Virus record (IMG/VR): IMGVR_UViG_3300028549_001457
Coordinates: 1 to 64,000 of that record
DNA length: 64,000 bases
Direction: 5' to 3' (one strand)
Source: a virus
Taxonomy: Duplodnaviria; Caudoviricetes
A program made the position numbers and the translations under genes. The notes below the pieces were generated by a model, which saw only the letters and a program-made list of their open reading frames with translations, was not told the origin of the DNA and did not search any database. Of the stretch, positions 34,122-39,369 are shown one piece after another; the stretch's first letter is position 1; every line of letters starts with the position of its first letter.

Positions 34122-34142
34122 GTTTTAACTTCTTTAGAGCTT

Positions 34143-34166
34143 GGGGGCTTCGGCCCCCATTCTTTT
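34143..34166 (+). terminator. Intrinsic terminator after MCP
   Basis: GGGGGC-TTCG-GCCCCC followed by T-rich tail. Confidence 0.85.
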
Positions 34167-34208: not shown

Positions 34209-34301
34209 GTGTCGGATCTTTGTCCCTGTGGAAATACGTCACTCACCAAGGTCCCTTTCTGTGAATCTTGTGCTGCGGAGGCCTTAAATGTCCATGCCTA
34301 A
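34209..34301 (+). CDS. Putative 30-aa Cys4 microprotein (below track cutoff)
   Basis: GGAGG RBS 8 nt before GTG; CPCG...CESC; overlaps the start of the LAGLIDADG gene. Confidence 0.45.
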   Translation: MSDLCPCGNTSLTKVPFCESCAAEALNVHA

Positions 34302-35514
34302 GTTAGACCCCAAGAATGTCACCTGGAATGATCACTTCTTTGATGACCCCCTTACACCCAAAGCTGCGTATCTCTTAGGTCTTCTAGCATCCGATGGGAA
34401 TATCTACAGGGGTCGCGCTTCTCATACAGGAGCTACCACTCTCGGTTTAATAGATAAAGAACATATGGAGCTTATAGCTCATATGCTGGGTTCTACCAGA
34501 CCACTATACTGTAACGTTAAAGGTAGATTTAAACTATGGGTTCTAAAACTTCCATCTGATCACGCCTATAATAGGCTTCTAGAGCTTGGGATGACTGAGA
34601 ATAAAACGTATGGTCTCAAGGTTGTTATTCCAAGTGATCATTTCTGGGAGTTTTTACGTGGCTTTACCGATGGGGATGGTTCAATCGATACACCAAAGCC
34701 CAATGGGACTCAAGCTCTACGGTGGAGGATATTTTCTCATTCAAACAATAGAGCGTGGTTAGAATTGATCCTAAGTCAGATTCAGTCAAAGCTCTCTAGT
34801 GTTTCTGGTGCCCTCGATGAAAAATCAACACAAAATCTCACAACCCTAAATATTGCAGGTAGCTTACAAGCTCTTCAAGTATTATGTGAAATATACCGGA
34901 ACTCAGAGGTCCCCCGGCTGGAAAGGAAGTTTGAGAAATTTGAAAGCTATCTTCGACATATCATGTCCAATTATGGTTCAGCAACCCGCCTATGGCTTCT
35001 TCAAAATAAGTCAGCCACACCCGAGTTCGTTCAAGATTTAGTGGGGGGTATCATTCATACTACCACGACATCCGTAGATTTAATCCAAGGGCTAACCTAC
35101 CTAACCCTTCCTGGGGGTCTTCCTCAATCTGTAATATACTTCAACCTAAGTTCGGGGTTTTATGATCAAGCTCTCTCTGAGAGAGTGTCTCTTAGGACCA
35201 TGGCCAGACATTTTAGTCTTGATCAATCAAAAGCGATGATTCTAAAAATAACCGCACAGCTTTCATCACGCGCAAAAAGAAGGGGCTTTAGTAGATCAAA
35301 TAGATCTCTAGCTGTTGTTAGGTTGGTGGAGGAGATTAAGCTTGGGGTGTATGATTCTGATTTGGAGAGCTGTACGTCAGTTTCAAAGTTTCTAAAGTTT
35401 AAGTTGGCCGAATACGGTGAGCCAGAGGCTGACGCCTCCTACCCCGAAAACGAAGCCTACACACGCAGAAAACAACTTTTACTGGACAAAACTTCTCAAG
35501 CCTCCGTATCTTAA
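34288..35514 (+). mobile_element. Free-standing LAGLIDADG homing endonuclease with long C-terminal extension
   Basis: YLLGLLASDGNI and FLRGFTDGDGSI motifs. Confidence 0.88.
35483..35512 (+). promoter_or_regulatory. Class-E promoter-like motif (TGGACA-N18-TATCTT) inside the 3' end of the endonuclease gene
   Basis: Recurrent motif upstream of the GNAT-IbrAB cassette. Confidence 0.55.
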
Positions 35515-35530
35515 ATCATGGGGGTTTGGG

Positions 35531-35947
35531 ATGCCGCTTCAAGTCTACTTTGATCACGAGGGCGATTTTTACTCCAGAATGGGTCCGTTCTTCGCCACAC
35601 GAGCCCACGTAAGGGAGATGGGTGGTTGGCAATTCTACACCCTTCCAGGGGCTATGTGGCTTGTAATCTCCTCTGATAGTAATCAGATCCAAGGCTTCTG
35701 TTCCCTAGTGCCCAAAAAGGGGTATCTTCTACTGGATAATCTCTTTATTCTCCCTGAATATCGTGGGCTAAAACTATCAAATCGACTATTGGATTCTGTG
35801 CTTGCAGAGGGGTTTCAGCAAGAGATTAGATGTATCACGAACAACCCCCACCAGTTGGCAAAATTTATCCGCCTTGGTTTTGAGTCCGTGGGGGTTCGGG
35901 GAGGTTTTACCCGGTTAGCTCGAAAACCCCGGAGTGTATCTATTTAG
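35531..35947 (+). CDS. GNAT-family acetyltransferase
   Basis: GFCSL...LLLDNLFILPEYRGLKLSNRLL...F.RLGF. Confidence 0.82.
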   Translation: MPLQVYFDHEGDFYSRMGPFFATRAHVREMGGWQFYTLPGAMWLVISSDSNQIQGFCSLVPKKGYLLLDNLFILPEYRGLKLSNRLLDSVLAEGFQQEIRCITNNPHQLAKFIRLGFESVGVRGGFTRLARKPRSVSI

Positions 35948-35962
35948 TGGGGGTTATCTAAA

Positions 35963-37207
35963 GTGTCAACAAAAGTCTATCTGGACATGGATGTCCTGCA
36001 AGCAGCTCAGGGGCGGATTTCATTTATTTTTGATAAATTCGAAAATATTTGTGTTTCTTTTTCAGCCGGAAAAGATAGCACCGTAATGCTCCATTTGGTT
36101 ATGGATGAAGCAAAAAGGCGACAACGCAAGGTCTCAGTCCTTTTTATTGACTGGGAGGCTCAGTTTAACCTTACAATAGACCACTGTAAAGCCTGTTTTG
36201 ATCTATATGCTGAGTGGGTCATCCCTTATTGGGTGTGTCTTCCGCTTAAGACTACAAATGCTTGTAGTATGTATGAGCCCGAGTGGACATGCTGGGAGGT
36301 CGCCAAGAAGCCGCTTTGGGTGCGAGATATCCCCGAATGGGCTATCTCAGATCACACATACTTCCCGTTCTTTTACGAGGCCATGTCTTTTGAAGAGTTT
36401 GTCCCTCTATTTGGAGAGTGGGTGGCGAGTGGCACCCCCACTGCAGTCTTGGTTGGGATTAGAACCGCAGAGAGTCTAAATAGATGGAGAACACTATTCT
36501 CGGAAAGTAAAACGTGTTTTGAAGGTCACCAGTGGACTACCAAACTATCTAATAATGTTTTCAATATGTATCCCATTTATGATTGGAAAACTGAGGATAT
36601 TTGGGTATACCATTCCACAACGGGCTTTCCCTATAATGGGCTATATGACTGTATGTTTCAGGCAGGGCTTTCCGTGTCTCAGATGAGAATCTGTGAACCC
36701 TTTGGTGATGAACAACGCAAGGGTTTATGGTTATATCATGTGGTAGAGCCCGAAACGTGGGCAAAGCTTTTGAGTCGCGTGGGCGGAGTTAACACAGGGT
36801 CCTTATATGCGGGTCAGCATAAAGGGATGCTTGGTGATGGCGCTATTGTAAAGCCCGAGGGATTTACCTGGAAAGATTTTGCCAAGCATCTTTTGGATTC
36901 CATGCCCACCCCTACCGCAGAGCATTATAAGAATAAGATCACGGTTTGGTTGAAGTGGTATCAGGATCATGGTTTTAAAGGATTCTTCCCAGTAGGATCT
37001 AACGATATTCTTGATGAACTTCCGGGGGATACTGGGGCGAAAGATACCCCCACCTGGAGGCGGGTGTGTAAAATGCTTCTTAAGAATGACTATTGGTGTA
37101 AAACCTTGGTTTTTTCACCCACTAAACAATCGTCGTTTGAGAAGTATTTGAAATTAATGCATAAGCGAAGAAAGACTTGGGGGATCTTTGATGATGTCTC
37201 TGAGTAA
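35963..37207 (+). CDS. ibrA: IbrA/YbdN-like PAPS-reductase-family protein (DUF3440)
   Basis: SFSAGKDS PP-loop; FIDWEAQ; YWVCLP; GIRTAESLNR; YPIYDW..EDIW; MRICEPFG; LLKNDY. Confidence 0.9.
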   Translation: MSTKVYLDMDVLQAAQGRISFIFDKFENICVSFSAGKDSTVMLHLVMDEAKRRQRKVSVLFIDWEAQFNLTIDHCKACFDLYAEWVIPYWVCLPLKTTNACSMYEPEWTCWEVAKKPLWVRDIPEWAISDHTYFPFFYEAMSFEEFVPLFGEWVASGTPTAVLVGIRTAESLNRWRTLFSESKTCFEGHQWTTKLSNNVFNMYPIYDWKTEDIWVYHSTTGFPYNGLYDCMFQAGLSVSQMRICEPFGDEQRKGLWLYHVVEPETWAKLLSRVGGVNTGSLYAGQHKGMLGDGAIVKPEGFTWKDFAKHLLDSMPTPTAEHYKNKITVWLKWYQDHGFKGFFPVGSNDILDELPGDTGAKDTPTWRRVCKMLLKNDYWCKTLVFSPTKQSSFEKYLKLMHKRRKTWGIFDDVSE

Positions 37208-37244
37208 TCGTCCCGCTAAGATATCTTCTAAGAAAAGGCTATAA

Positions 37245-37868
37245 ATGTTATCTAAAATAATTGACCTTCTGAATGACTCCGAAAAGCTCCCCCTAGATGA
37301 GCGGGTTGATTTCCTAAATGCTGTTAAAGTAGCTGCCCATGCGGTTAGTCCTTTTAAAGCACATCCCGTGGATTGTGTTTTATGGGCCAAGTGCGACTCT
37401 GTTGTTGCGAATGATTACAATCCCAATGTAGTAGCCCCCCCTGAGCTGGCTCTGTTAGAGCTTTCAATTATTTCCGATGGCTACACTCAGCCCATCGTCT
37501 CTTGGAGAAATGGGGACGCGCTTGAGGTTATTGATGGTTTCCATAGAAATCGGGTAGGGAAGGAAAGCCCCCTCGTTAAGGAAAAACTCCTCGGGTATCT
37601 TCCCGTGGTTATTGCTAATGCTGACCGAGTTAATTCTGGTGATCGAATGGCTTCTACCATTAGACACAATCGCGCTAGAGGTAAACATAAAATTACGGCA
37701 ATGTCTGAAATTGTAAGGTCTCTAGCCAAACGCAATTGGTCAAATGAAAAAATCGGGAAAGAACTCGGTATGGACCCCGATGAGGTTCTACGGTTTCGTC
37801 AGATTGGTGGGCTAGCTGAGGTTTTTGGGGATACTCAATTTTCCCAAGCCTGGGACGTTGAGCCCTAA
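37245..37868 (+). CDS. ibrB: IbrB/YbdM-like ParB/Srx-fold protein
   Basis: HPVDCVLW...ANDYNPN.VAPPEL.LL..SI..DGYTQPIV...IDGFHR...STIRHNRARGKH. Confidence 0.9.
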   Translation: MLSKIIDLLNDSEKLPLDERVDFLNAVKVAAHAVSPFKAHPVDCVLWAKCDSVVANDYNPNVVAPPELALLELSIISDGYTQPIVSWRNGDALEVIDGFHRNRVGKESPLVKEKLLGYLPVVIANADRVNSGDRMASTIRHNRARGKHKITAMSEIVRSLAKRNWSNEKIGKELGMDPDEVLRFRQIGGLAEVFGDTQFSQAWDVEP

Positions 37869-37888
37869 CCAGAACCATTTATGTGTTC

Positions 37889-37914
37889 AAAAGGCCTCTT
37901 CGGGGGCCTTTTTT
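37889..37914 (+). terminator. Intrinsic terminator closing the IbrAB cassette
   Basis: AAAAGGCCTC-TTCG-GGGGCCTTTT. Confidence 0.85.
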
Positions 37915-38116: not shown

Positions 38117-38740
38117 ATGTCAGAACAGACGCACATCTTAAATCGCATGGTGATTTTCACTGAAATCCCTGGAAGCCCACGGCTTCCGCAGGGGACATGC
38201 ATCACCTCCAAAAAGGTTGAGGGGTCTATTGAGTATGACGTTATCGCTCTTACTCCCTCCGGTCAGAGGTATGAGTTCAAGTCCACGCACATTGAAAACC
38301 TAATCAAAACACCCTGGGTTGATTGTGCTGTAGCCCCAACAGTTGAGAAGGTGCCTGCCTCCAAGCCTCCTGTGGAGGTTCCCAATCCTTTCACTCTAGG
38401 GGATGTTGCTTCGGTTGAGCACGGCCTCATGAATGATGCCCTTCCTACTGTGGATGTCACAGGGTCCAGCGCTAGTGAGACTTTTGGGGTGCAAGTAGCT
38501 CCTGAAGTTGAAGTAGCTCCTGAAGTTCCTGAAGTTGAAGTAGCTCCTGAAGTTCCTGAAGTTGAAGTAGCTCCTGAAGTTCCTGAAGTTGAAGTAGCTC
38601 CTGAAGTTCCTGAAGTTGAAGTAGCTCCTGAAGTTGAAGTAGCTCCTGAAGTTGAAGTAGCTCCTGAAGTTGAAGTAGCTCCTGAAGTTGAAGTAGCTCC
38701 TGAAGCCCCCGTAAAATCTCGTAAACCTAAAAAGGGTTAA
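38117..38740 (+). CDS. Hypothetical protein with acidic VAPEV(PEV)E repeat tail
   Basis: AAGGAG RBS; repeat region; basic C-terminus SRKPKKG. Confidence 0.75.
38495..38704. repeat. In-frame tandem array of 18-bp and 27-bp units ([15 protein letters not shown] x4, VAPEVE x4)
   Basis: gtagctcctgaagttgaa and gtagctcctgaagttcctgaagttgaa units. Confidence 0.95.
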
Positions 38741-38742
38741 CA

Positions 38743-39369
38743 TTGAAATTAACTCTACGAGAGTTAAGATCCGCTAGTGTCCTAGGGCCGCTAGCGGATC
38801 TTTTACATACAGGTACCACTCTCAAGGAGTTGATTCACTCGTCCCCAAATAGGTCCTATGAGGGTCCTGGGAAAGCCTGCTCTGTCACATATAAAAGTTT
38901 CAATAAATCGGGAGGGGCTTGGTTTGTAACCTACCAAGTTTTTGGTACAAAATCCGAGTCTGACCCCAGAGGGTGGAAGGTTAGGGTTCGCTTCTTTCCT
39001 GAAGCTCACGTTGCCGACCCGTTAGATCTTGACGTTGACGTTAGTTGTGATTGCCCTGCATTTTTATACTGGGGTGCCCAGTGGAATACCCATCAAAAAG
39101 ATGCCCTTGAGCGGCAGCGTCCCGAGTTAGTGGCCCCTCACCCAGTTGGAGTTGAGTTTATAGATAAGCGAGGGAACCCCAGAAAGCATAATGTCCCTCG
39201 TGATTATGTTATCTGTAAACATATTAAGGCTGTTTCCGAGCGGGTTGGCGGGTTATTAGAACGTCACCTCAAGAAACACACCGAGGATTCTGATTTCCAA
39301 GACAAAATATATCAGCAATCTCTTGAAAAAGTTAAGGCAAAAAGCTCCCCCGAGCCAACTCAGAGCTAG
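38743..39369 (+). CDS. SWIM-type zinc-finger protein
   Basis: VSCDCPAFLYWG...ICKHIKAV. Confidence 0.7.
   Translation: MKLTLRELRSASVLGPLADLLHTGTTLKELIHSSPNRSYEGPGKACSVTYKSFNKSGGAWFVTYQVFGTKSESDPRGWKVRVRFFPEAHVADPLDLDVDVSCDCPAFLYWGAQWNTHQKDALERQRPELVAPHPVGVEFIDKRGNPRKHNVPRDYVICKHIKAVSERVGGLLERHLKKHTEDSDFQDKIYQQSLEKVKAKSSPEPTQS

Follow-up and report, generated by a model that had tools for sequence, protein, structure and literature searches.

A Rare IbrA/IbrB Cassette With a GNAT-Like Partner Behind the Capsid Gene of a Giant Phage, and Its Possible Action on DNA

INTRODUCTION

Paired genes encoding IbrA and IbrB are common in phages, prophages and bacteria, Escherichia coli K-12 among them, and are usually mislabelled as sulfur-metabolism or partition genes. 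The pair is already known as a family, and under laboratory conditions CitR and H-NS repress its K-12 representative, the ybdNM operon. This article concerns a member of the family found at positions 35483-37914 of the window, by which we mean the whole stretch of DNA analyzed, the first 64 kb (64,000 nucleotides) of the 278,785-bp virus record IMGVR_UViG_3300028549_001457 (IMG/VR; Duplodnaviria, Caudoviricetes). An original prediction had described it as a self-contained cassette of a GNAT acetyltransferase, IbrA and IbrB, framed by a promoter motif and a terminator, inserted in the structural module of the phage and potentially devoted to DNA modification.

Published precedents exist in which a ParB-like protein accompanies an enzyme that modifies DNA. 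A phage ParB activates a thymine dioxygenase on double-stranded DNA (PMC13229309), the ParB-like ATPase DpdB is required for 7-deazaguanine insertion into DNA, and DndB of the Dnd system is itself a ParB-superfamily protein (both PMC12839542). A ParB-fold protein fused to an acetyltransferase has been reported to bind GTP (PMC12704722).

Set against this background, the locus is best explained as a member of the IbrA/IbrB (YbdN/YbdM) family that is accessory to the phage and was acquired by horizontal transfer; it takes a three-gene form with a dedicated GNAT-like subunit. Three of its aspects were not found in the literature searched and appear to be new, namely, the location of the pair next to the capsid gene of a giant lytic phage, in company with a homing endonuclease; the membership of the GNAT in a partner family dedicated to IbrA/IbrB; and the recurrent link of the pair with SNF2 proteins. 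The description of the locus rests directly on gene content, folds, conserved motifs and gene linkage, which are taken up first, before the reaction that the encoded proteins may carry out.

A RECURRENT MODULE OF GNAT, IbrA AND IbrB

All genes of the cassette lie on the plus strand in reading frames that are intact under code 11. They encode a small GNAT-fold protein of 138 residues (35531-35947); IbrA (35963-37207, 414 residues), composed of a PP-loop ATP-pyrophosphatase domain of the PAPS-reductase subfamily and a C-terminal DUF3440 domain; and IbrB (37245-37868, 207 residues), with a predicted ParB-type N-terminal fold for binding nucleoside triphosphates (NTPs), followed by a helix-turn-helix. 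The names originally given to the three genes are borne out by Pfam and PHROG matches and by full-length similarity of the latter two products to E. coli YbdN and YbdM.

The smallest product exceeds the cut-offs of three Pfam GNAT models (PF13508, 29.7 bits against 27; PF00583, 27.4 against 20.7; PF13673, 26.8 against 23.6) and is the only Pfam GNAT in the 279-kb phage genome, and the profile of its family, compared with solved structures, matched GNATs in 18 of 18 cases. Its start was placed at ATG 35531, which follows a GGGGG Shine-Dalgarno sequence and agrees with the starts of homologues, in preference to GTG 35417, which would overlap the upstream gene.

To place this protein, IbrA loci were compared in two sets, 51 viral (IMG/VR) and 80 bacterial; an IbrA profile scan of prokaryotes, with one genome per species, returned at least 293 relatives from many phyla. 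Homologue loci are designated here by L numbers (e.g., L127, L140, L194). Used as a query against 763 open reading frames (ORFs) of the bacterial loci, the window GNAT matched seven, all abutting IbrA or IbrB. Family profiles run over about 10,600 ORFs recovered nine further members outside the seeds (L211, L212, L207, L177, L140, L142, L180, L219 and L220), every one in an IbrA/IbrB cluster, and no member outside such clusters was detected among the ORFs scanned. The GNAT-like family is carried by 14 of the 80 bacterial loci and by two metagenome loci, the latter holding the two closest IbrA relatives found in metagenomes. The gene abuts IbrA or IbrB in 15 of these 16 loci, the exception being L140, where it lies 1.3 kb upstream with two genes in between. 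The GNAT-like gene either comes first, giving the order GNAT-IbrA-IbrB of the window, or stands between the other two (IbrA-GNAT-IbrB), and the members span Bacteroidota, Bacillota, Desulfobacterota, Verrucomicrobiota, Actinomycetota and Proteobacteria. Because the GNAT-like family is seen only in IbrA/IbrB clusters, in two orders and across many phyla, the trio is a real, recurrent module, and the proposal that its three genes form one unit is upheld. Among the 51 IMG/VR loci, neither blastp nor the family profiles found a GNAT relative, the small genes at the corresponding position belonging to other families; a word-index homologue search yielded, apart from the protein itself, a single relative (79%) on a contig of 551 bp.

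What this subunit contributes is less certain than its company. At the coenzyme A (CoA)-binding loop (R/Q-x-x-G-x-G/A) the window protein reads RGLKLS, as compared with R-x-[KN]-G in close members, and about half of the family is without the loop. Acetyl transfer is not assured, because the window GNAT is without the usual loop glycine and so many of its relatives are without the loop itself; the shared role of the family may instead be binding or adaptation. In the ESM Atlas, the clusters near the window GNAT include regulatory GNATs of the PanZ/PanM type.

Two IMG/VR contigs carry an ectoine-synthase-like cupin (PF06339, 3.7e-34 and 9e-42) between IbrA and IbrB (L050:1663-2034 and L052:6359-6859). 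In the ectoine pathway, EctA, a GNAT, acts directly before ectoine synthase, and a cupin in the place of the GNAT-like gene therefore hints, by analogy, at an amine-bearing substrate.

IbrA WITHIN THE PAPS-REDUCTASE SUPERFAMILY

IbrA matches Pfam PAPS_reduct (PF01507, 5e-17, 62.9 bits against a cut-off of 22.5), followed by DUF3440 (PF11922, 1.3e-34, 120 bits against 25), and PHROG family phrog_2302 (1.8e-91). It shares 45% identity with E. coli K-12 YbdN over residues 4-409 (E 3e-136). Its GTG start at 35963 is preceded by a GGGGG ribosome-binding site and is confirmed by homologues, which align from residue 1. The PP-loop, SFSAGKDS at residues 32-39, is intact, and its pattern, S-x-S-[GA]-G-K-D-S, is retained in all 163 of the distinct full-length homologues over which motif conservation was counted. 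A C-terminal cysteine, C379 in the motif NDYWCK, lies in a flexible stretch and is retained in 159 of the 163.

In the predicted structure, confidence (predicted local distance difference test, pLDDT) exceeds 90 for roughly the first 100 residues; up to residue 240 most values lie at 70-95, falling off around residue 175. The modeled N-terminal domain resembles the PAPS domain of FAD synthase, APS/PAPS reductases and CysD (Z 12-14). The DUF3440 part was modeled with low confidence and found no structural match covering it.

The usual label of such phage genes would make IbrA an auxiliary sulfur-assimilation enzyme, that is, a PAPS reductase of the CysH type, and this label has its sources: the Pfam PAPS_reduct match, the PHROG description "phosphoadenosine phosphosulfate reductase," and the counting of the DUF3440 clade under CysH in virome papers. 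The family models speak otherwise. NCBIfam CysH and PAPS-reductase models score 27-35 bits on IbrA, against cut-offs of 154-254, and CysH proper was rejected at 32.2 bits against 254.2 for TIGR02057 and 27.4 against 165.1 for TIGR00434. The C-terminal catalytic motif of CysH, ECGLH, is not present in the IbrA translation; the protein has a full ATP-type PP-loop, DUF3440 as an additional domain, and a ParB-like protein as its obligate partner. A role in sulfur assimilation is accordingly very hard to credit.

The original prediction had also drawn a link to DNA phosphorothioation through DndC and SspD, and this link proved weak. TIGR03183 gives 28.4 bits against a cut-off of 290.4, the PADLOC DndC model reaches 30 bits over part of the protein only, and no Aminotran_5 match, the mark of a cysteine desulfurase, occurs in the 279-kb phage genome, for which a host enzyme could serve. 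CysD and BrxP were set aside as well, with scores far under the family cut-offs. Judged by its sequence, IbrA is thus a member of the PAPS-reductase superfamily that is none of DndC, CysH, CysD and BrxP.

IbrB AND THE ParB FOLD

IbrB is matched by phrog_2159 (2e-63) and is 55% identical to E. coli YbdM over its full length. The Pfam ParB_N model reaches it only at E 0.16 and finds no match anywhere in the phage genome. The invariant motifs NxYNPN, DGFHR and RHNRARG are counterparts of the three nucleotide-binding boxes of ParB, and the predicted model (pLDDT 83) matches Noc, ParB and KorB in its N-terminal domain and helix-turn-helix (TM-score 0.49-0.57), fitting these proteins better than sulfiredoxin or serine kinases. 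With a ParB/Srx-type N-terminal domain, the DGxHR motif and a place adjoining IbrA, the protein belongs to the IbrB (YbdM) family. It ends at residue 207, soon after the helix-turn-helix, and is without the C-terminal dimerization domain that ParB clamps use and that a canonical partition ParB requires; assignment as such a ParB was rejected on this ground.

Longer IbrB forms of 374-404 residues (e.g., L012:3874-4998) bear a conserved C-terminal domain with the motif SCEHYLTN...MNRIAWLGQA. The same domain also occurs as a standalone small gene directly upstream of IbrA (L010:3826-4326, L003:4613-5011 and Pseudomonas phage Amjad_SA); no Pfam model matches it, and the genome of the window phage does not contain it. 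At L051:6253-7257, an IbrB of 334 residues has an N-terminal extension that, judged by eye in an alignment, resembles an HNH-endonuclease motif and may represent a gene fusion or a homing endonuclease that was absorbed.

GENOMIC SETTING OF THE CASSETTE

By its capsid protein, the phage falls into a group with Bacillus phage G, Tunturiibacter phage Tunturi_5 and a large number of uncultured giant phages, and 82 giant-phage loci related by this protein were available for comparison. In 56 of the 82, a homologue of the gene at 38743-39369 is found 0.6-4.7 kb past the capsid gene, with no IbrA/IbrB between them; in the window this gene lies 4.6 kb past the capsid gene, with the cassette in the interval. 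The predicted insertion into the structural module is thereby corroborated. The contents of the slot vary among the 82 loci and often consist of NUMOD3-type homing endonucleases, as well as HNH or TnpB elements. Given that 56 related loci are without IbrA/IbrB at this point and that the filling of the slot varies, the cassette is an accessory insert, seldom encountered, at a site frequently occupied by mobile endonuclease genes. Only one of the 82 other loci, L127, has IbrA and IbrB after the capsid gene (L127:10888-20459, on a 174-kb giant-phage contig). Its IbrA, of 561 residues, is 35% identical and its IbrB 49% identical to those of the window, with a TnpB gene and a pair of HNH/NUMOD endonuclease genes lying between the two. 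At this locus, restriction-endonuclease-like and NUMOD3 genes precede IbrA/IbrB, and a UDP-glucose dehydrogenase gene follows.

The upstream boundary of the unit is an intrinsic terminator after the major capsid gene (34142-34159, plus strand), in which a 7-bp stem with six G-C pairs is followed by a T run (-18.2 kcal/mol, z -3.1). The next gene, at 34288-35514 on the plus strand, encodes a two-motif LAGLIDADG homing endonuclease of 408 residues (phrog_4645, 8e-28; Pfam LAGLIDADG_3, 1.7e-5; LAGLIDADG_1, 8e-4), in whose translation two LAGLIDADG-type motifs are recognizable. Downstream of IbrB, the terminator that had been predicted to close the unit is real, a 10-bp stem and T run at 37889-37912 on the plus strand (-17.9 kcal/mol, z -3.3). 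No terminator was found between the endonuclease gene and the GNAT gene. Since the endonuclease gene shares the same two terminators and none precedes the GNAT gene, the transcription unit probably comprises four genes, endonuclease, GNAT, IbrA and IbrB, rather than three.

The endonuclease and GNAT genes may also be joined in translation. A hairpin is predicted at 35494-35533 on the plus strand, from the end of the endonuclease gene to the GNAT start (fold of 35470-35540: -20.5 kcal/mol, z -3.4), in which the last endonuclease codons pair with the GNAT Shine-Dalgarno sequence and start codon and the endonuclease stop codon sits in the loop. It was ruled out as a terminator, there being no T run after it; through this predicted structure, GNAT translation may be coupled to that of the endonuclease. 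The promoter motif proposed at 35483 does exist (TGGACA, 18 nt, TATCTT; 9 of 12 matches), within the end of the endonuclease gene, and finds no support as a promoter, such sites occurring 11 times in the region against a chance expectation of 9.9. The self-contained unit of the original prediction therefore keeps its three genes and its closing terminator; its promoter stands at chance level, and its upstream limit has to make room for the endonuclease gene. No palindromic parS-like sites were found in or near the cassette apart from the terminators.

Beyond the cassette lie two further genes. The first, directly after it at 38117-38740, encodes 207 residues whose second half consists of PEVEVA-type repeats; neither Pfam nor PHROG matches this protein, and the 82 related phage loci hold no homologue. 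The second, at 38743-39369, encodes a 208-residue protein with a weak SWIM zinc-finger match and marks the far edge of the variable slot.

A setting of this kind raises the thought that the phage gained the block only recently and draws little benefit from it, the genes being for the most part selfish cargo of the homing endonuclease. Such a view accords with the scarcity of the genes in related phages, where IbrA/IbrB follow the capsid gene in that single locus and neither the window endonuclease nor the window GNAT has a homologue in any of the 82; with the frequent filling of the slot by NUMOD3, HNH or TnpB elements; and with the nearest IbrA relatives (at most 57% identity) residing in small phages and bacteria. 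The LAGLIDADG endonuclease may indeed explain how the block moved. Idle cargo is nevertheless improbable for four intact reading frames that have ribosome-binding sites, keep conserved catalytic motifs and end in a clean terminator, and the notion concerns origin, with which function is still compatible. No close relatives of the phage were found: a scan with the capsid protein alone returned no match, and viral and metagenome IbrA proteins were at most 57% identical.

A POSSIBLE REACTION ON DNA

The neighbors of IbrA point to DNA. IbrA is preceded by an SNF2-type translocase of about 415 residues in at least 21 of the 80 bacterial loci and in 5 of the 51 viral loci, and viral IbrA loci also include DnaB, ERF, SSB, NinG and YqaJ, proteins of replication and recombination. 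In a Bacilli genome, the GNAT-like ORF upstream of IbrA (L194:22-636, at a contig edge) starts with SNF2 motif VI (QAEDRVHRIGQ), which suggests an SNF2-GNAT-like fusion protein. Together with the ParB/Noc/KorB-like fold predicted for IbrB and the published ParB-like partners of DNA-modifying enzymes, these neighbors lend weight to the DNA-directed role that had been proposed. Recurring GNAT-like and SNF2 partners, a universal PP-loop and the DNA-binding build of IbrB narrow the question to an ATP-driven reaction on DNA.

Our working view, held with somewhat less than even confidence, is that the trio carries out such a reaction, in which IbrB would direct or activate IbrA, IbrA would adenylate a target oxygen, and the GNAT-like subunit would add to, sense or scaffold that step; substrate, chemistry and benefit are what we infer. 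First, IbrB would bind DNA through its helix-turn-helix and an NTP through its ParB-type N-terminal domain, and would bring IbrA to, or activate it on, double-stranded DNA, a step suggested by the fold and invariant motifs of IbrB and by the published precedents. Second, following the general chemistry of PP-loop enzymes, IbrA would spend ATP to adenylate an oxygen on the target, which would then be replaced by sulfur, by way of the near-invariant C-terminal cysteine, or by an amine. Third, and least certain, the GNAT-like subunit might acylate the new group or serve as a CoA-sensing or adaptor subunit. The likely pay-off for a lytic phage would be DNA that is marked after replication and spared by host nucleases.

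The fold of IbrA leaves room for other targets. The substrates of PP-loop enzymes also include tRNA, small molecules and proteins, and further fold matches of the IbrA model include TilS (Z 11.8), NcsA (11.3), LarE, ThiI (8.0) and Cap9 (7.3). By analogy with these, IbrA might modify RNA, for instance tRNA as TilS, NcsA and ThiI do, or protein as the QueC-like Cap9 does, with IbrB as a mere scaffold. Such a role is distinctly unlikely in view of the resemblance of IbrB to DNA-binding ParB proteins with a helix-turn-helix, the SNF2 partners, which are translocases of double-stranded DNA, and the DNA replication neighbors; domain scans showed no RNA-binding domain.

A second alternative retains DNA as the target and dispenses with a chemical mark. 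IbrB would be a ParB-type transcription regulator or anti-silencer, akin to KorB or VirB, and IbrA and the GNAT-like protein would make or sense its ligand, so that gene expression is re-programmed. The sole phenotype in print points this way, the IbrAB island of E. coli being credited with activating prophage eib genes (attributed to Sandt et al., 2002). KorB and Noc rank among the best predicted structural matches of IbrB, ParB-fold proteins that regulate transcription are known (PMC12704722), and both the nearby PanZ/PanM-type GNATs and the absence of the CoA loop from about half of the GNAT-like family would suit a regulatory complex. An obligate PP-loop enzyme whose motif persists in 163 of 163 homologues is, on the other hand, difficult to reconcile with ligand-controlled transcription, as are the usual neighbors, SNF2 translocases and replication or recombination genes, and the placement of the present genes among the late structural genes of a giant lytic phage. 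A change in expression could, moreover, itself stem from a DNA mark. We regard a purely regulatory function as unlikely.

Several considerations weigh against the DNA-directed reaction that we tentatively favor. The eib phenotype and the breadth of PP-loop substrates, both just described, are among them, as are the missing dimerization domain of IbrB, the doubtful acetyl transfer by the window GNAT and the missing cysteine desulfurase. The candidate catalytic cysteine C379 is absent in 4 of the 163 homologues, namely, a Clostridia group and one other sequence. E. coli K-12 carries ybdNM, and to our knowledge no unexplained DNA modification has been reported in it, although the repression of the operon in laboratory culture tempers this point. 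The literature searched contains no nucleic-acid modification, target, anti-restriction effect or biochemistry for any IbrA/IbrB pair, in keeping with the earlier remark that IbrAB biochemistry is poorly defined.

A still more specific proposal, possible and on balance doubtful, is that IbrA, IbrB and the GNAT-like protein, often with SNF2, constitute an undescribed ATP-dependent installer of a new base or backbone modification in double-stranded DNA, used by phages against restriction. As part of this same doubtful proposal, the chemistry would differ from that of Dnd/Ssp, of methylation, of deazaguanine insertion and of the hydroxymethyl-pyrimidine pathways. If true, it would represent a new kind of DNA modification for phage counter-defense. 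E. coli ybdNM and the cultured phages that carry the pair are better test beds for these ideas than an uncultured phage.

RELATION TO KNOWN SYSTEMS

The nearest relatives in kind are the IbrA/IbrB pair of the E. coli ECOR-9 island and YbdN/YbdM of K-12, in which IbrA is likewise followed by IbrB and which share with the cassette the PAPS_reduct and DUF3440 domains, the PP-loop and the DGFHR and RHNRARG motifs. They differ in setting: the cassette follows the capsid gene of a lytic phage of 279 kb and comes with a GNAT-like gene and a homing endonuclease, whereas the enterobacterial loci have the LysR regulator CitR and no GNAT-like gene. Phage pairs of phrog_2302 and phrog_2159, described as "PAPS reductase + ParB-like" and including Pseudomonas phage Amjad_SA and Streptococcus phages annotated as IbrA/IbrB, belong to the same family, and Amjad_SA is the best cultured-phage match (IbrA 55% and IbrB 58% identity). 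Unlike the cassette, these pairs sit among replication genes, beside an SF2 or SNF2 helicase, and their third gene, rather than a GNAT, encodes a small protein akin to the C-terminal domain found in long IbrB forms.

Dnd/Ssp phosphorothioation, with DndC/SspD and the ParB-superfamily protein DndB, likewise combines a PAPS-reductase-family PP-loop enzyme with a protein of the ParB/Srx superfamily (PMC12839542). BREX type 4 BrxP and DndC are weak sequence matches to IbrA, far under the family cut-offs, and a cysteine desulfurase, unlike in Dnd/Ssp, is missing from the phage genome. Only IbrA has DUF3440, and its one near-invariant cysteine stands in contrast to the cysteine cluster of DndC.

A parallel of another sort is offered by 5mYOX176 with ParB176 and by DpdA with DpdB, where the enzyme is an Fe/2-oxoglutarate dioxygenase or a transglycosylase as opposed to the PP-loop enzyme of the cassette. 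ParB176 keeps the dimerization domain and has no obvious DNA-binding domain, and IbrB is the reverse. In these systems, as in the arrangement envisaged for IbrA and IbrB, a DNA-modifying enzyme needs a dedicated ParB-like partner on double-stranded DNA.

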